From: Pseudomonadota bacterium
GTDB taxonomy: Bacteria > Pseudomonadota > Gammaproteobacteria > SURF-13
Direction: 5' to 3'
NCBI GenBank assembly: GCA_027624315.1
Contig: JAQBXX010000001.1
Location: forward strand, 62,203-126,202
DNA length: 64,000 nt
Every line of letters starts with the position of its first letter. Position 1 is the stretch's first letter. The notes beneath the pieces were generated by a model. It had not been told where the DNA came from, searched no databases, and worked only from the letters and a program-made list of their open reading frames with translations. Made by a program: the position numbers and the translations under genes. This document shows, in pieces, positions 3,217-45,706 of the stretch.

Positions 3217-3443
3217 GGCGCTAAGTGTATAGGAATCATGGGGCAGTCACAAAACCGGCTTTATACATAGCGTCAGAAATCGTAGCGAGCGGCTTTCAGG
3301 CGGGGGCGGTGGAGCGCAGGAACCGGAGTGTACAAGTCAGTCTGCCGCTACGCGGCCCCGGATTCCGAGCACCGCACGCACCGGCATCAAAGACGCGCAG
3401 TAGATTTGTGGCGCTATGTATGGATAGTATAGTGGCGAGGAAT

Positions 3444-3878
3444 ATGAACTACTGGCTGATGAAATCCGAGCCCGATGCGTTCGGCATCGACGACCTCAAA
3501 CAGCGCCCGGCGCAGACCGAGCCGTGGGACGGTGTGCGCAATTATCAGGCGCGCAATATGATGCGTGATGACATGCAGGTGGGCGATCAGGCGTTTTTCT
3601 ACCATTCCAACTGCGCCGTGCCCGGCATCGCGGGCATGATGAAAATTGTCCGGGCGGGTTATCCCGATGCCAGTGCGTTCGATCCGCGCGGAAAACACCA
3701 TGATCCGAAGAGCACGCCCGATAACCCGCGCTGGTTTCGCGTGGATGTGCGCTACGTGCGCAAATTCAAACGCCTCATCAGCCTCGCCGAACTCAAGGCG
3801 CATCCCGAACTGCGCGGCCTTGCGCTGCTCCAGCGCGGCAACCGCCTGTCCATCATGCCGCTGACGACGGCGCAATAG
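3444..3878 (+). CDS. EVE (PUA-like) domain protein
   Basis: MNYWLMKSEPDAFGIDDL...WDGVRNYQARNMMRDDMQVGDQAFFYHS is the EVE/thymocyte-nuclear-protein-1 family signature. Start taken at the ATG at 3444, not the upstream ORF start at 3225. Confidence 0.75.
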   Translation: MNYWLMKSEPDAFGIDDLKQRPAQTEPWDGVRNYQARNMMRDDMQVGDQAFFYHSNCAVPGIAGMMKIVRAGYPDASAFDPRGKHHDPKSTPDNPRWFRVDVRYVRKFKRLISLAELKAHPELRGLALLQRGNRLSIMPLTTAQ

Positions 3879-3960
3879 AAATTCATTCTGTCGCTGGAAT
3901 AGCCACTACCGGAGAATGATCCTACCCCCATTTCACGGACACCCGGCTAAGAGAATAAAC

Positions 3961-4017
3961 GGCGCGCTCAAAAACCAAGTGCAACATTTTTCAGGAGAAA
4001 ATGTTGCATGGGAAAAA
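3961..4017 (+). mobile_element. solo IS30-family left inverted repeat (remnant)
   Basis: ggcgcgctcaaaaaccaagtgcaacatttttcaggagaaaatgttgcatggg matches the reverse complement of the left end of the complete IS30 copy (45050-45101) nearly base for base. It includes the transposase ATG and then diverges. No transposase ORF follows. Confidence 0.5.
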
Positions 4018-4076
4018 ACTTAGCTATCAAGCAGGAATATCGCAAGTCCCCGCGTCCGGACCCCCCGGACGCTGAC

Positions 4077-4337
4077 TTAATACCACTCGCCCGGATTGGC
4101 GCGCCTGCGGTAGGCATCCGTAAACATCACTAGAGCGGCGAGCACACAGAGCAGACCGAACACGACCAGCGTGCGCGGGAGCGAGCTCATGTCATCCCAC
4201 ATCATCTGCATGTGTTCGGCGAAGTGCAGCAGTGACGATTGCAGCAGCAGGAGCGAGTCCGCCACATACAATCCGAGCCATACCAGTGCGATACCGGTCA
4301 CCAGCAACGGCCAGCCAAGGGGTGGTGCACGCCTCAT
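4077..4337 (-). CDS. small two-transmembrane membrane protein (hypothetical)
   Basis: 86 aa (MRRAPPLGWPLLVTGIALVWLGLYVA...LVVFGLLCVLAALVMF) with two hydrophobic helices. A GGAGA Shine-Dalgarno lies 6 nt upstream of the ATG at 4337. It is the C-terminal part of an otherwise spurious 231-aa ORF. Confidence 0.4.
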   Translation of the reverse strand: MRRAPPLGWPLLVTGIALVWLGLYVADSLLLLQSSLLHFAEHMQMMWDDMSSLPRTLVVFGLLCVLAALVMFTDAYRRRANPGEWY

Positions 4338-4369
4338 ACGATCATCTCCGGACAGGGTGTGCGGCCATT

Positions 4370-5773
4370 CTACAACGCCTCGGAGGCGTAGTCTGCAAGC
4401 CGTGAGCGCTCGCCGCGCATGAGCGTGATATGCCCGCTGTACTGCCAGGCCTTGAACCGGTCCACCACATAGGTCAGGCCCGAGGTGGTCTCGGTGAGAT
4501 ACGGCGTGTCGATCTGCGCCACGTTGCCAAGGCACACCACCTTGCTGCCCGGCCCGGCGCGCGTGATCAGCGTCTTCATCTGCTTGGCGGTGAGGTTCTG
4601 CGCCTCGTCTAGAATGATGAATTTGTTGAGGAAGGTGCACCCGCGCATGAAATTGAGCGAGCGTATCTTGATGCGGCTGCGCAGCAGGTCGTGGGTGGCG
4701 GCGCGGCCCCAGTCGCCGCCGACATCGGACTGGGTGAGCACCTCCAGATTGTCCATCAGCGCGCCCATCCACGGCGTCATCTTCTCTTCCTCGGTGCCCG
4801 GCAGGAAGCCGATGTCTTCCCCCACCGGCACCGTCACGCGCGTCATGATGATCTCGCTGTAGCGCTTTTCATCCAGCACCTGCTCCAGGCCCGCGGCGAG
4901 CGTGAGCAGCGTCTTGCCCGCGCCCGCGGTGCCGAGCAGCGTGACAAAATCGACCTCGGAGTCCATCAGCAGATTGAGCGCGTAATTCTGTTCGCGATTG
5001 CGCGCGTTCACGCCCCACACCGCATGACGCGCGGTGCGGAAATCGCGTACCAGCTCGATCGTCGCGCTCTCACCCTCCAGCGCGCGCACGATGGCCTCGA
5101 AGCCGCTCTCATCCGCGCTGAACAAGAACTGGTTCGGACACCAGTGCGCCACCTCCGGGCCGCTGATCTTGTAAAACGTGCGCCCGCTCTCCTGCCACGA
5201 CGCCATGTTCTTGCTGTGCGTGTCCCAGAAATTCGCGGGCAGTTCCCCGGCGCCGCTGTAGAGCAGGTTGACATCGTCCAGCACCTGATCGTTGTAGTAG
5301 TCCTCGGCATACACCCCGAGCACCGCTGCCTTGATGCGCAGGTTGATGTCCTTGGAGACCAGAATCACCGTGACGTCGCGGTGCTCCTGTTGCAGCGCGA
5401 TCACCGTGCCGAGGATGTTGTTGTCCGGGCGATGGCCGGGCAGCGCCTCGTGCAGTTCGAGCGGCATGCGGCGGGTCTGAAAAAACAGACGCCCGTGGGC
5501 GCCGGCCGCCTGACTGAAGGCCGGCAGCGCAAGTCCGCGGTCGATCTCGTCCTTGCTCGCGTTGCGCATCAGATCGTCGAGAAAGCGGCTCACCTGACGC
5601 ACGTTGCGCGCGACTTCCGACAGACCCTTCTTCCCCGCGTCCAGCTCCTCCAGCACCATCATCGGCAGATAGACGTCGTGCTCCTGAAAGCGGAAGATCG
5701 CGGTGGGATCGTGCATCAACACATTGGTGTCGAGCACGAACAAACGCTTGCCGGTGATTTCTTTTCTGGTCAT
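4370..5773 (-). CDS. PhoH-like ATPase with N-terminal PIN domain (YlaK family)
   Basis: N-terminal PIN (LFVLDTNVLMHD) and C-terminal PhoH P-loop (LLGTAGAGKTLL...FIILDEAQN). Start assigned at the ATG at 5773 (MTRKEIT). Confidence 0.85.
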   Translation of the reverse strand: MTRKEITGKRLFVLDTNVLMHDPTAIFRFQEHDVYLPMMVLEELDAGKKGLSEVARNVRQVSRFLDDLMRNASKDEIDRGLALPAFSQAAGAHGRLFFQTRRMPLELHEALPGHRPDNNILGTVIALQQEHRDVTVILVSKDINLRIKAAVLGVYAEDYYNDQVLDDVNLLYSGAGELPANFWDTHSKNMASWQESGRTFYKISGPEVAHWCPNQFLFSADESGFEAIVRALEGESATIELVRDFRTARHAVWGVNARNREQNYALNLLMDSEVDFVTLLGTAGAGKTLLTLAAGLEQVLDEKRYSEIIMTRVTVPVGEDIGFLPGTEEEKMTPWMGALMDNLEVLTQSDVGGDWGRAATHDLLRSRIKIRSLNFMRGCTFLNKFIILDEAQNLTAKQMKTLITRAGPGSKVVCLGNVAQIDTPYLTETTSGLTYVVDRFKAWQYSGHITLMRGERSRLADYASEAL

Positions 5774-5799
5774 ATAACCTATAGTTCGCAACGCTAATT

Positions 5800-5896
5800 C
5801 CCTCCCCCTTTATGGGGGAGGGTTAGGGTGGGGGTGTGGTAACCGGCATCATTTCACCCCCATCCCCGCCTTCCCCCATCAAGGGGGAAGAAGTCA
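5800..5896. repeat. GC-rich REP-like repeat family, two adjacent units
   Basis: ccctccccctttatgggggagggttagggtgggggtg followed by cacccccatccccgccttcccccatcaagggggaag. Shares the core GGGGGAGGG..AGGGTGGGGGT with copies at 1476, 6411, 29408 and 16651 (inverted). Confidence 0.7.
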
Positions 5897-6370: not shown

Positions 6371-6410
6371 GTTGCACCTCGTACATTATCAACGCAGCAA
6401 CAAAACATAT

Positions 6411-6470
6411 CCCCTCCCCCTTGACGGGGGAGGGCCAGGGTGGGGGTGAAATGCCTGACCCTCACCCAAC
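6411..6470. repeat. GC-rich REP-like repeat
   Basis: cccctcccccttgacgggggagggccagggtgggggtgaaatgcc forms a stem-loop (ccctccccc/gggggaggg) followed by the agggtgggggt motif. Confidence 0.7.
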
Positions 6471-8007: not shown

Positions 8008-8160
8008 GGGAAGCTCTGATTTATTCAGAGCTTCCCTGCGGCACACGGATGTGCCGCCATTTCTCAAACACGCAAGTGTTTGAGAAATGAAGAAAAACGA
8101 AAATCGCATTTTCGTTTTTCGTCTCTGAAAATTCCATGGATGGAATTATTCAGAGTTTCC
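8008..8160 (-). repeat. composite multi-hairpin intergenic element, copy A (inverted relative to copies C and D)
   Basis: The reverse complement aligns module by module with 28922-29075 and 31843-31984. The modules are ctctgaataattcc..ggaatt..cagag, gaaaaacgaaaatgcgattttcgtttttc, tttctcaaacacttgcgtgtttgagaaa, gcggcacatccgtgtgccgc and gggaagctctgaataaatcagagcttccc. Confidence 0.8.
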
Positions 8161-8179
8161 TTAGTAAGGGAGAGTCGCC

Positions 8180-23831: not shown

Positions 23832-24744
23832 CGCGCAGAATCTCGCGCGCGCCGCGCGCGAGCAGATCATCGGCGAGCGCGATGCCGAGCTGCTCGGCCT
23901 CCGCCTGCGGGCCGCTGACCGCGCCGCGCACCACCGCGCTGCCGTCGGGCCGGCCCACCAGACCGCGCAAACTGAGCAAGCCTGCGGCGAGCAGCGCATG
24001 GCCCGCAATCGGTACCTGACAGCCGCCCTGCAGGCGATGATTCATGGCGCGCTCGGCACTCACTCGGAGGTGCGTCTCGGCGTCGTCCAGCACACGGATG
24101 AGATCATGTACGCGCGCATCGTCCGTACGGCACTCGATGCCGATGGCACCCTGACCGACGGCGGGCAGGCTCACCTCCGGCTCCAGCAACTGCGTGATGC
24201 GCGCACCGAAGCCGAGGCGCAACAGGCCCGCAGCGGCGAGTATGACTGCGTCGAACTCGCCCTCATCCAATTTCCTGAGGCGCGTATTCACATTGCCGCG
24301 CAGACTGACGATGTGCACATCCGGACGCCGCTCCTGCAACTGACACTGCCGCCGCAGACTGGACGTGCCCACGCGCGCACCCTGCGGCAACGCATCCAGC
24401 TTGGCATAGCGGTTAGACACAAACGCATCACGCGGGTCTTCACGCGCGCCGATCACCGGCAGACACAGGCCCGCCGGAAACTCCATCGGCACATCCTTCA
24501 TCGAGTGCACGGCGATATCGGCGCTGCCATCGAGCAGCGCCTGCTCCAGCTCCTTCACGAACAATCCCTTGCCGCCCACCTTGGACAGCGGCGTGTCGAG
24601 AATCTTGTCGCCCTGGGTGCTCATGCGCACCAGCTCTATCTGAATTCCGGGATGAGCCGCGAGCAGGCGGTCGCGCACATGTTCGGCCTGCCACAGCGCG
24701 AGCGGGCTTTTGCGTGTGGCAATGCGCAGTGTCTGTGTTGACAT
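23794..24744 (-). CDS. hemC: hydroxymethylbilane synthase (porphobilinogen deaminase)
   Basis: 316 aa, [18 protein letters not shown]...; the HemC signature. Confidence 0.9.
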
Positions 24745-24771: not shown

Positions 24772-24934
24772 CAGGCTGTTGAAAAAGTCCGTCCAGGACT
24801 TTTTCAACCACGTAAAGCAAAAAATGTGATTTTTGCTTTACTTCATTTTTCAAACACTTACGTGTTTGAAAAATGGCGGCACATCCATGTACCGCACCGC
24901 AGGCTGTTGCAAAACAGAGTTTTTCAACAGCCTG
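24772..24934 (+). repeat. composite multi-hairpin intergenic element, copy B (variant terminal hairpins)
   Basis: The central modules gtaaagcaaaaaatgtgatttttgctttac, tttttcaaacacttacgtgtttgaaaaa and ggcggcacatccatgtaccgc are conserved with copies A, C and D. The terminal hairpins are replaced by caggctgttgaaaaagtccgtccaggactttttcaacc and caggctgttgcaaaacagagtttttcaacagcctg. Confidence 0.75.
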
Positions 24935-28910: not shown

Positions 28911-28921
28911 CGGGTTACTTA

Positions 28922-29075
28922 AGGAAGCTCCGAATAATTCCATCCAGGAATTATTCAGAGCACGAAAAACAAAAATGCGATTTTTGCTTTTCTTCACGTT
29001 TTTCAAATACTTACGTATTTGAAAAATGGCGGCACATCCATGTGCCGCAGGAACCTCTGATTAATCAGAGGTTTT
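28922..29075 (+). repeat. composite multi-hairpin intergenic element, copy C
   Basis: ggaagctccgaataattccatccaggaattattcagagc, acgaaaaacaaaaatgcgatttttgcttttc, tttttcaaatacttacgtatttgaaaaa, gcggcacatccatgtgccgc, aggaacctctgattaatcagaggtttttt. Lies between two convergent gene ends. The last module resembles an intrinsic terminator. Confidence 0.8.
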
Positions 29076-29078
29076 TTA

Positions 29079-29407: not shown

Positions 29408-29462
29408 GCTACGTCTCCGCCCCCTGTTTAGGGGGCGGGATAGGGTGGGGGTAGAGTAAACA
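29408..29462. repeat. GC-rich REP-like repeat, near-identical to the copy at 1476-1530
   Basis: ctccgccccctgtttagggggcgggatagggtgggggtagagtaaac against 1476-1530 tccccgccccttgtttagggggcgggacagggtgggggtagagtaagg. Confidence 0.75.
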
Positions 29463-31789: not shown

Positions 31790-31842
31790 TTCTTGTTCTC
31801 TTTGCTTTCCCTTGCTACTCGTTACTTATTTACGGAAGCTCT

Positions 31843-31984
31843 GAATAATTCCATCCAGGAATTATCAGAGCACGAAAAGCAAAAATGTGATTTTTTCTTT
31901 TCTTCATTTTTCAAATACTTACGTATTTGAAAAATGGCGCTACACCCCTGTAGCGCAGGAACCTCTGACACATCAGAGGTTCCT
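31843..31984 (+). repeat. composite multi-hairpin intergenic element, copy D
   Basis: About 90% identical to copy C. The gcgctacacccctgtagcgc module shows compensatory changes relative to gcggcacatccatgtgccgc. The last hairpin abuts the dut stop codon. The element lies 54 bp upstream of the algC start. Confidence 0.8.
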
Positions 31985-32439
31985 TACTGTCTTCCCGAAT
32001 GCCCGAAACCGCCGGCGCCGCGCTGAGTCTCGTCAAACGACTCGACGATATCAAAGCGTGCGCGTACTACGGGCACAAACACCATCTGCGCGATGCGTTC
32101 ACCCGCGTTGACGGTGAAAGGCTCGCTGCTCCGGTTCCAGCACGAGACCAGCACCTGGCCCTGATAATCCGAGTCGATCAGGCCGACCAGGTTGCCGAGC
32201 ACGATGCCGTGCTTGTGGCCGAGACCGGAGCGCGGCAACAGCACCGCCGCGAGCGCGGCGTCGGCGATGTGCATCGCCATGCCGGTCGGGATCAGGTGGG
32301 TCTCGCCCGGCTTGATGAGCAGCGGGCTGTCGAGACACGCGCGCAAGTCGATGCCTGCGGAGCCGTCCGTGGCGTACGCGGGCAGCGGAAATTCATTGCC
32401 GAGGCGCGCATCAAGAATCTTGAGTTGTATGCTTTGCAT
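31984..32439 (-). CDS. dut: dUTP diphosphatase
   Basis: [34 protein letters not shown]... Start at the ATG at 32439; the ORF begins at 32496. Confidence 0.9.
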
Positions 32440-43965: not shown

Positions 43966-43976
43966 GGTTTATACTT

Positions 43977-45101
43977 GGCGGTTTCAATGACCAAGTGCAA
44001 AAAGCGCAGCATGATGCTGCCTGAAATCAAACGCATCCGGGGTGAACAACTCCGCGGGACACTTGAAGCCCAACGTCTTGCGTGGCCGGGTATTCAGTTT
44101 CCAGGCAATCGCATCCAGTTCCTTCTGGGTGAAGCCACTCAGGTCGCTGCCCTTGGGCAGGTACTGCCGCAACAGGCCGTTGGTGTTCTCGTTGATGCCG
44201 CGCTGCCAGGGGCTGTGCGGATCGGCGAAGTAGACCTTCACCCCGGTGGCTTCCGTCAGTCGTTGATGCGCCGCCATTTCACGGCCCTGATCGTAAGTGA
44301 GCGACAGACGCTTTTGCGCCTCGATCCGGTTGAGCACATGGCTGAAGCCTTCGAGCGCCGCTTCGGCACCGGCGTCGTTCATGCGCGACAGCACCGTGAA
44401 CAGGGTGGCGCGCTCCACCAGGGTGCCGACCGCCGAGCGGTTGTGCGCCCCCTTGATGAGATCGCCCTCCCAGTGCCCCGGCACCAGCCGCTCTTCCACT
44501 TCCGGTGGGCGATCATGAATGCTGACCATGGCGGGGATCTGACCGCGCCGGTCTTCACCCCGCGCACGGGGTCGGTGTTTGGCATGGCCGAAACGCAGCC
44601 AGCCAATCACCGCCGTGCGCAGCTCACCACGCGGCATGGCGTAGATCGCGGTGTAGATGGTTTCGTGAGAAACCCGCAACAAAGGCTGGTCGGGATGCAC
44701 GGCTTGCAGTGTGCCAGCAATCTGCTCGGGCGAGTAGCCTGCCTTCAGGTAGCGCAGCACCGGCTTCCACAGGGCGGTTCCGGGCTGCAGGCGGCGCTCC
44801 ACCCGTGGGATGGCCGTGCAGGCTTGGGCGCGCTGATGGGCCGCTTCGGCACGGTAGCCGCCGGCCAACGCAGGGCGTCCCGGGCCGCGACGCGCCTTCG
44901 GGCGAGCCCAGCCGTTGCGGCAGAGTTCGCGGGAAAGCGTGGAGGCCGAACGATTCAACCCCGCGGCAATCGCCGCCGGTTTGATGCCCATTTCCAGTTG
45001 CGTTTGGATCATCGTTCGCTCTTCAATACTCAACTGCTGGTAGATTTTCCCCATGCAACATTGTCTCCTGAAAATGTTGCACTTGGTATTTGAGCGCGCC
45101 C
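43977..45101 (-). mobile_element. complete IS30-family insertion sequence (about 1.1 kb) with terminal inverted repeats
   Basis: Terminal inverted repeats ggcggtttcaatgaccaagtgcaa (43977-44000) and ttgcacttggtatttgagcgcgcc (45078-45101). Candidate 3-bp direct duplication ctt at 43974-43976 and 45101-45103. The internal transposase ORF ends within the repeat. Confidence 0.85.
43984..45054 (-). CDS. IS30-family transposase (DDE)
   Basis: 356 aa with an N-terminal HTH (EERTMIQTQLEMGIKPAAIA) and a C-terminal DDE domain (HWEGDLI...DQGREMA...). Confidence 0.9.
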   Translation of the reverse strand: MGKIYQQLSIEERTMIQTQLEMGIKPAAIAAGLNRSASTLSRELCRNGWARPKARRGPGRPALAGGYRAEAAHQRAQACTAIPRVERRLQPGTALWKPVLRYLKAGYSPEQIAGTLQAVHPDQPLLRVSHETIYTAIYAMPRGELRTAVIGWLRFGHAKHRPRARGEDRRGQIPAMVSIHDRPPEVEERLVPGHWEGDLIKGAHNRSAVGTLVERATLFTVLSRMNDAGAEAALEGFSHVLNRIEAQKRLSLTYDQGREMAAHQRLTEATGVKVYFADPHSPWQRGINENTNGLLRQYLPKGSDLSGFTQKELDAIAWKLNTRPRKTLGFKCPAELFTPDAFDFRQHHAALFALGH

Positions 45102-45125
45102 TTTAAGGCTGTATGGGTGCCCAAT

Positions 45126-45392
45126 TTACGCCGCCTTTCTGCGCTTCATCACTTGATCCAGATCGTAGGTGGCCTGAAGGTTCATCCAAACCTTGGCGGA
45201 TGTACCTAGTGCCTTGGCCAAATCCAGCGCCGCCTCTGCAGTAATGCCTCTTTTGCCCTTGATTAACTCATTCAATCGCGCACGCGTCCACCCCAGTTTC
45301 TTCGCAAATGCGGCCTGGGTGATGTCGTCTGGAATGAGGAACTCCTCCAGAAGAATCTCTCCCGGATGAAACGGATTTCTGGGCTGACGCAT
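45126..45392 (-). CDS. higA: HigA-family antitoxin (XRE HTH)
   Basis: MRQPRNPFHPGEILLEEFL... with a helix-turn-helix (QAAFAKKLGWTRARLNELIKG). The ORF could start at 45419. Confidence 0.75.
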   Translation of the reverse strand: MRQPRNPFHPGEILLEEFLIPDDITQAAFAKKLGWTRARLNELIKGKRGITAEAALDLAKALGTSAKVWMNLQATYDLDQVMKRRKAA

Positions 45393-45415
45393 GATATTTA
45401 CCTCTTCATCCAGCT

Positions 45416-45706
45416 TCAATGATAATCAACAACCTGTACATCACTGGCATTACCGTCCTGCCACCTGAAAACTACCCGCCACTGGCTATTGATGCGAATA
45501 GAGTGGTAGCCCTTCCATTTGCCTTTTAATGCCTCAAGCCGGTTGCCGGGCGGAACGCGCAAATCCAACAACTCAGCGGCATCATGCAGATAGAGCAGTT
45601 TTCTGCGCGCCGCGCGCGTTACATCGGGCGGAAATGACAGCATATCCTTACTGCGCCGGTCGAGAAACAGATCCTGTGCCAGCTTATTTCCAAAGCCCAA
45701 AATCAT
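45416..45706 (-). CDS. higB: HigB-like toxin (RelE/ParE superfamily, plasmid-maintenance killer)
   Basis: 96 aa, ...LEALKGKWKGYHSIRINSQWRVVFRW, toxin-first higBA order. The palindrome tatcgaaactcgata at 45711-45725 upstream is a likely operator. Confidence 0.75.
   Translation of the reverse strand: MILGFGNKLAQDLFLDRRSKDMLSFPPDVTRAARRKLLYLHDAAELLDLRVPPGNRLEALKGKWKGYHSIRINSQWRVVFRWQDGNASDVQVVDYH

Follow-up and report, generated by a model that had tools for sequence, protein, structure and literature searches.

As described by Snesrud et al. (2018, PMC5821093), the insertion sequence (IS) ISApl1 is lost from its host DNA through deletions of about one IS length between direct repeats of 1-10 bp, which leave remnants of 42 or 90 bp with an entire terminal repeat; the authors attribute the loss to template switching in an abortive copy-out transposition event, at a time when both IS ends are synapsed. 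For IS30, it has been described that its junctions yield adjacent deletions starting at the repeat edge, and that its repeats stay targets for IR-targeting even in a dead element (Szabo et al. 2022, PMC9333248).

The window analysed here (the whole stretch of DNA under study, 64 kb in length) carries at positions 3961-4020 the left end of an IS30-family element of a lineage designated type B, without a partner end. The best explanation of these 60 nt, and a probable one, is an inert left-end stump of a type-B element that would have lost its body through imprecise excision. As a mere piece of an IS30-family member the stump is not itself a member, and with neither a transposase nor a second end it is incapable of autonomous movement.

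A solo left end between an EVE-domain gene and a membrane-protein gene

The features of the locus, together with the complete IS copy found elsewhere in the window, are as follows.

3444-3878, plus strand: EVE-domain gene, 144 aa (Pfam EVE, E = 5.8e-56)
3903-3918, plus strand: relic of the spacer between the EVE gene and a lost adaptor gene, ccactaccggagaatg, with the GGAGA ribosome site of the latter (alignments to the relatives L028 and L019)
3919-3960, no strand assigned: left flank of the repeat, 42 nt, ending in AT-rich GAATAAAC; no match found
3961-4020, plus strand: type-B IS30-family remnant comprising left end, 5' leader, ATG and 4 codons (59/60, ungapped, to L001 and L011)
3961-3985, plus strand: left terminal inverted repeat (IRL), GGCGCGCTCAAAAACCAAGTGCAAC; agrees exactly with the IRL pattern (chance expectation 0)
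3980-4008, no strand assigned: 11-bp hairpin, TGCAACATTTT / AAAATGTTGCA; its loop contains the Shine-Dalgarno sequence AGGAG (3993-3997), and the ATG is at its base
4021-4076, no strand assigned: 56 nt from the stump to the stop codon of the membrane-protein gene; no significant match to IS types A or B past 4020, nor to relatives
4052-4059 / 4065-4072, no strand assigned: GC-rich hairpin, GCGTCCGG-ACCCC-CCGGACGC, just past the stop codon of the minus-strand membrane-protein gene
4077-4337, minus strand: gene for an 86-aa membrane protein, whose stop codon is the exact point at which the relatives are homologous again
43977-45100, minus strand: complete type-A IS30-family element, 1124 bp, with a 356-aa transposase at 43984-45054, repeats matching at 19/25 and an AAG duplication

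As the first-pass annotation of this DNA had stated, the segment lies between the EVE-domain gene, ending at 3878, and a small membrane-protein ORF on the minus strand (4077-4337), after which a PIN/PhoH gene comes next. The 25 nt of its left repeat are the same 25 nt that open every full copy of the IS, and the pattern of this terminal repeat occurs in the window at 3961-3985 and 45076-45100 only (0.00 expected); the 17-mer ACCAAGTGCAACATTTT has exactly two occurrences in the 64 kb, compared with 0.01 expected by chance. Local alignment with the complete copy pairs 3956-4020 (+) with 45105-45042 (-) over 65 columns with one gap, and bears out the description of a left repeat and a transposase start, including the ATG (4008-4010), followed by divergence: the similarity to the IS stops at 4020. 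Past this point no significant similarity to either IS type was found (P = 0.07). A longer match, reaching 4037 by way of a 6-nt insertion and a CAAGCAG common to both, was considered and rejected (P = 0.07, with the best alignment elsewhere).

The annotation was also right that no transposase ORF follows, the only ORFs at the stump being one of 41 aa (4008-4133) and one of 35 aa (3916-4023). Whereas a complete IS30-family element has a DDE transposase (N-terminal HTH and rve catalytic core, matching the IS30 family model) and two terminal inverted repeats of ~20-30 bp, the stump retains four transposase codons and the left repeat alone. Its left flank ends in AAC and a second AAC lies at 4017-4019, before the inner junction, an arrangement compatible with a 2-3-bp duplication. 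The 41-aa ORF, on the plus strand, begins at the orphaned transposase ATG, runs antisense to the membrane-protein gene and is called as a gene in public assemblies (L016, L018 and L032); the call is probably an annotation artefact seeded by the orphaned ribosome site and ATG.

Two IS30-family lineages and the parentage of the stump

Scans with IS patterns of one-genome-per-species contigs and of metagenomes yielded 15 loci, 10 of which are full or contig-truncated IS copies that fall into two lineages, A and B; the hits L003 and L004 were discarded as chance matches to the search pattern. The type-A transposase begins MGKIYQQLSIEERTM and the type-B transposase MGKNYKQLSLEERTM. The complete copy in the window is of type A, and the intact type-B copies are those of Thiobacillus denitrificans RG (L001) and of a metagenome contig (L011). 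The two types are 83% identical in protein (297/356) and 80% in DNA. The ends of the type-A copy in the window, GGCGCGCTCAAATACCAAGTGCAAC and GGCGGTTTCAATGACCAAGTGCAAA, match at 19 of 25 positions, and 3-bp target duplications were found at this copy (AAG) and at L001 and L010 (CTG); the likeness of left and right repeat and these duplications together delimit the element. The transposases of the window copy and of L001 each score 293 bits against the NCBIfam IS30 model NF033563, whose cut-off is 80 bits, and have HTH_38 and rve domains; an exact-protein look-up of the former gave no match. Among plasmid records, the closest elements that bear a name are ISPsp7-like, with ~70% DNA identity over 60% of the element; they have an IS30-family DDE transposase in common with types A and B but are too distant from them to be one and the same IS. 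Types A and B appear to be unnamed members of the family, with sulfur-oxidising betaproteobacteria as their hosts (Thiobacillus, Sulfuricella and MAGs related to them).

Aligned with the two type-B copies, the stump matches at 59 of 60 positions, ungapped and with a single substitution, compared with 55 of 60 and one gap for the type-A copy in the window (five substitutions and one indel) and 54-56 of 60 and a gap for all type-A copies. The diagnostic positions are all in the type-B state (AAAAA vs AAATA, TTTTT vs TTTT, and GGGAAAAAAC vs GGGGAAAATC), as derivation from the lineage of L001 and L011 demands. Apart from the stump, no type-B copy, intact or otherwise, was seen in the 64-kb window. 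The stump shows that two related species of the IS30 family have at some time been present in this MAG lineage. The type-A element with its AAG duplication (43974-45103) lies 22 nt downstream of a higB-higA toxin-antitoxin pair (45126-45706) and 11 nt upstream of a homoserine O-acetyltransferase-like ORF, assigned from its translation. Elsewhere, the type-A copies L010 and L012 have their right flank in common (ctgcgtcaatctgcgtaatctgcgga) and differ in their left flanks, which indicates that one of these loci has been rearranged at the IS.

The first-pass annotation had taken the stump for a footprint of the very element that is complete at 43977-45100. The two have an equal architecture and 55 of 60 positions in common, yet five substitutions and one indel stand between them, against one substitution to two independent type-B copies from other sources, and since every distinguishing position is in the type-B state, descent from the resident copy is very improbable. 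The annotation had further left a choice between the footprint of an insertion and deletion, which holds in the form of an IS30 remnant with its body deleted, and a miniature derivative, which does not. The latter would be a miniature non-autonomous element (MITE) with both ends, mobilisable by the resident transposase, and hardly any weight can be given to it: although the complete left repeat is kept, and short stumps of like size recur in other genomes, these stumps share the IS-derived part only, stop at different positions and have no flanks in common, the stump itself is single-copy in the window, and neither a right repeat nor a second left repeat lies within reach. A search of the window for the right repeat with three mismatches allowed recovered the right end of the complete copy and, as weak matches, both left repeats, none of them a partner within a few hundred bp of the stump, and the 10-nt core common to both repeats was found at the three known ends only. 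Of the marks of a MITE (both repeats on a short unit, target duplication, several copies) the first and the last are absent here, the stump having a single end and a single copy in the window. The IR-like string ttggcgcgcc at 4096-4105 was tried as a right end and dismissed because it belongs to the native gene: the relative L028 has the identical string in its coding sequence. As for a generic motif shared by chance with unrelated loci, or a host sequence beside which the IS inserts, its probability is negligible. The one point in its favour is a shared TAAA just outside the repeat, and this is accounted for by an AT-rich target preference; against it, 0 matches are expected by chance, the same 60 nt open 11 full copies (one in the window and ten elsewhere) with unrelated flanks, and the 3-bp duplications place the repeat inside the element.

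A 158-nt block in place of an RND efflux operon

In all six relatives examined (L028, GCA_030655395.1; L029; L030/31; L021; L023; and L027, GCA_030680605.1), the EVE gene is followed by a gene for a periplasmic adaptor (MFP) of 349-352 aa, which starts 20 nt downstream of it (5 nt in L023), and then by a gene for an RND transporter of 1064-1067 aa; in two long relative contigs the 86-aa, PIN/PhoH, AhpC-like and ACT genes come next, on the opposite strand. The EVE genes of the six relatives show 82-94% DNA identity, the window grouping with L028, L029 and L030 (93-94%), and this group being 82-83% identical to L021, L023 and L027. The operon is present in both subclades, and its absence in the window is therefore a loss. 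No adaptor or RND homolog was found anywhere in the 64 kb.

Where the relatives have the 4,242 nt of the adaptor-RND operon, the window has 158 nt (3919-4076). Homology to L028 runs through 3918, stopping 3 nt before the ATG of the adaptor gene, and is back at 4077 with the stop codon of the 86-aa gene, 5 nt past the RND stop in L028. Borders within 3-5 nt of the ends of a two-gene operon are not expected of a random deletion. The EVE gene itself ends at a TAG (3876-3878) where 6/6 relatives have TGG (Trp); its ancestral stop lies in frame 24 nt downstream, at 3900-3902, and the early stop removes the conserved last 8 residues (W-K/D/E-F/I-I-L-S/A-L-E). An exact look-up with the 148-aa EVE ORF gave no match, while the 144-aa database version (P0001) was matched.

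The block is made up of the 42-nt left flank, the 60-base stump and the 56 nt that include the GC-rich hairpin. Neither flank matches the operon of the relatives, either strand of the type-A and type-B elements, the rest of the window or any of 34 retrieved loci; in plasmid records the repeat itself was matched and the flanks were not, and viral contigs gave nothing. One alignment of the flank with the type-A antisense strand (score 23, P = 0.009, uncorrected for 8 tests) was taken as chance because the parent type B gives nothing. When 3919-3950 was considered as the C-terminal tail of the lost RND gene, none of 120 homologous tails, which are hypervariable, resembled any of its reading frames. 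Apart from the 60 nt common with the complete IS copy, 3920-4076 has no other copy in the window. The left flanks are AT-rich at all IS copies, and the GAATAAAC of the stump fits 13 other copies.

In the window's own population in the database (L016, L017 and L018) the block is identical and the stump is present in all three contigs, an apparent variant in L018 differing by Ns and contig-end noise only. A look-up by the 86-aa protein for a strain with an occupied or empty site returned the same two contigs only; neither an occupied site (a full type-B element) nor an empty one (the 42 and 56 nt contiguous) was found.

Two families of short repeats were also observed in the window. An A+T-rich family of ~120-165 nt has four copies (8035-8163, inverted; 24804-24925; 28915-29078; 31826-31986), each made of four or five short perfect palindromes, such as gaataattcc...ggaattattc, tttttcaaatacttacgtatttgaaaaa, and ggaacctctgattaatcagaggtt followed by Ts, and it has the look of an intergenic element of stacked hairpins. 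The other family, G+C-rich and REP-like (CCCTCCCCC-N5-GGGGGAGGG-ttagGGTGGGGGTG), occurs at 1483-1522, 5797-5836, 5850-5888 (inverted), 6409-6448 and 29414-29453; two of its copies, in inverted orientation, stand on either side of the AhpC/redoxin gene, a short way upstream of the PIN/PhoH gene.

Proposed formation of the stump, its hairpins and its described counterparts

We propose that the short stretch separating the EVE gene from the convergent membrane/PhoH genes would have received a type-B element at an AT-rich site (...GAATAAAC|), and that nearly the whole IS body, ~1.07 kb, would later have been lost through imprecise excision by a mechanism like that of ISApl1, in which template switching or illegitimate recombination takes place in abortive copy-out transposition with the IS ends held together. 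The candidate joint is the 4-nt repeat AACT, present at IS positions 57-60 (...ATGGGAAAAAACT) and formed on the other side by a presumed target duplication AAC with the next flank base T; the AAC that ends the left flank is a plausible 3-bp duplication, the stump ends ...AAAAAACT and the next bases are TAGC. The product predicted for such a joint (...AAAAAACT|TAGC...) is the sequence read at 4013-4024. What would remain is the whole left repeat, that is, the transposase-binding end, together with the ribosome-site hairpin, the ATG and four codons. Since neither the occupied nor the empty site was found, the AACT joint is one that we infer, as are the order of events, a causal link between the IS and the operon loss, and a present-day role. 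On the AACT model the 42 and 56 nt would be one contiguous target, and therefore a 98-nt piece would have been in the gap before the IS arrived.

At least three further stumps of the same kind were recovered. Each keeps the whole left repeat: that of Thiobacillus denitrificans RG (L005) stops 11 nt past the ATG, that of L015 stops at +33, and that of the Sulfuricella denitrificans plasmid pSCD stops at +47 and has lost the 3' arm of the hairpin. With the window stump, which stops at +13, they make four secure stumps of 56-95 nt from a 1.1-kb element. Four such end-points would not be expected if truncations were spread evenly along the element, a comparison to be read with the design of the search patterns in mind, which demanded both the repeat and the beginning of the hairpin. 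L002 was not counted, as the IS copy there may have been interrupted and not truncated; its right side is like reverse-strand coding sequence, the locus is cut 228 nt further on, and Pfam searches of its fragments gave nothing.

Several of these loci have features of their own. At L005 (4391-4628; NZ_LDUG01000002.1) a solo type-B left end lies between an EAL-domain gene and an mrpA-like gene, with one arm of a perfect 23-bp inverted repeat, ctagcagtctgtcggacttgaag, on each side. Read as reverse complement, the left flank of this solo end matches the DNA adjoining the right end of the intact type-B copy in L011 (91% over 109 nt), a relation that suggests either an inversion or the reuse of a repeated palindromic target. 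The pSCD remnant (L034 2001-2075; Sulfuricella denitrificans skB26, NC_022358.1, ~24167-24241) belongs to the same IS subgroup, is unannotated, and lies between a methyltransferase gene and pal; here the ATG is also lost and ~47 nt of the ORF are kept. L002 (7711-7772) and L015 (1016-1076) have 890 nt of left flank in common (94%), followed by a decayed IS left end, and wholly different right sides, with stops at +16 and +33, so that synteny breaks at the IS end.

The 11-bp stem starts inside the left repeat, and on the minus strand it is followed by CTTGGTTTTT; the RNA of that strand folds at -14.3 kcal/mol (z = -4.35). It is the sole terminator-like match in 3400-4600 (1 found vs 1.1 expected) and lies on the minus strand, and the stem as read on that strand has 3 G-C pairs only and is followed by CUUGGUUUUU. 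The GC-rich inverted repeat noted in the first-pass annotation is real, although its arms lie at 4052-4059 and 4065-4072 rather than at the stated 4048-4070. The number of pairs is 8, rising to 9 if a G-U pair of the minus-strand RNA is included, and with an outer stem it folds at -20.2 kcal/mol (z = -3.7), with no U-tract on either strand. Rfam 15 covariance models gave no match with E <= 1 in 3700-4400, and a promoter scan of 3400-4600 found none.

The stump lies inside the block that replaces the operon; it therefore marks the operon loss and may have contributed to it. A stronger reading, which we consider possible but doubtful, is that the IS caused the loss, by IS30-type intramolecular transposition or by recombination between IS copies, the stump being what remains of the agent. 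The stump sits exactly in the operon gap, IS30 junctions are known to produce adjacent deletions (PMC9333248), and in a GC-rich genome a preference for AT-rich sites could bias breakpoints to gene borders. However, transpositional deletions begin at the repeat edge (PMC9333248), and no repeat is seen here at a breakpoint: the repeat lies 42 nt from the left one and the stump 56 nt from the right one, with DNA of no known match in between. Two independent events at one permissive intergenic site fit the data equally well. A different proposal concerns what the stump does now, namely that it has been kept because it terminates or insulates transcription where the EVE and membrane-phoH units converge, the two having become neighbours once the operon was lost. 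Judged from the fold, a terminator role of the 11-bp hairpin for the minus-strand membrane-phoH transcript is possible: a hairpin of -14.3 kcal/mol followed by CTTGGTTTTT, alone of its kind in the region, lies 69 nt downstream of the membrane-gene stop and after the GC-rich hairpin of -20 kcal/mol. That it was kept for this purpose is nevertheless unlikely, for the scan count equals chance and the stem is A+T-rich; hairpin and T-run are unchanged from the type-B element (L001, L011) and therefore give no sign of adaptation, and all contigs of the population are identical and therefore give no signal of selection.

It is rather improbable, too, that the stumps of this subgroup are, instead of random wreckage, a regular by-product of abortive copy-out in which the transposase-binding repeat and the hairpin next to it are kept every time, and that the stump has acquired a present-day role here. 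In such a case the stump could act as a terminator or insulator between newly convergent units, or else it could be a live 'landing pad', a putative pseudo-end bindable by the resident type-A transposase; if true, the pseudo-end would seed further rearrangements of the 41 kb up to the intact copy. Our preferred reading is still that of an inert stump left by imprecise excision.

As an object the stump is routine: truncated IS copies are common, and this one is an ordinary genomic scar of a known kind, whose formation route has already been described for ISApl1, and not a new system. Its value is modest and lies in what it adds to the map. The loss of an efflux operon, the adaptor-RND pair beside the lpt/kds cluster, is mapped precisely, dated to this lineage and given base-exact borders; more IS30-family stumps that retain a repeat are brought to light; and the 41-aa gene call in a public MAG is flagged as spurious.

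The sequestering of translation start signals in a left-end hairpin is a general feature of many IS, and the stump resembles them in that its 11-bp stem has the ATG at the foot and a loop that contains the Shine-Dalgarno sequence; it differs from them in that any predicted control extends to the spurious 41-aa ORF only. In E. coli K-12 the IS30B copy is truncated (Szabo et al. 2022, PMC9333248) and is likewise an incomplete IS30-family copy found beside intact ones; compared with it, the present locus shows no evident IR-IR junction, IR-targeting or repeat-edge deletion, and its resident intact copy is another IS species (83% transposase identity).

The ISApl1 remnants of decaying Tn6330 (ISApl1-mcr-1-ISApl1) differ in that, as far as the available text of Snesrud et al. 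(2018, PMC5821093) describes them, they keep the right repeat where our stump keeps the left, and in that their joints were proven by empty and occupied sites whereas ours is a candidate; the stump here, moreover, lies within 98 nt without a match, at the loss of a 4.2-kb operon. The likenesses are a common family, IS30; a remnant, of 42 or 90 bp in ISApl1 and of 60 bp in the window, in which one terminal repeat is complete; a loss of about one IS length; a short direct repeat at the joint (1-10 bp there, the candidate AACT here); and junctions that are 'ragged' between independent cases. The stumps described here thus add independent, environmental, betaproteobacterial examples of the ISApl1 pattern, in which the repeat is kept whole and the body is gone.
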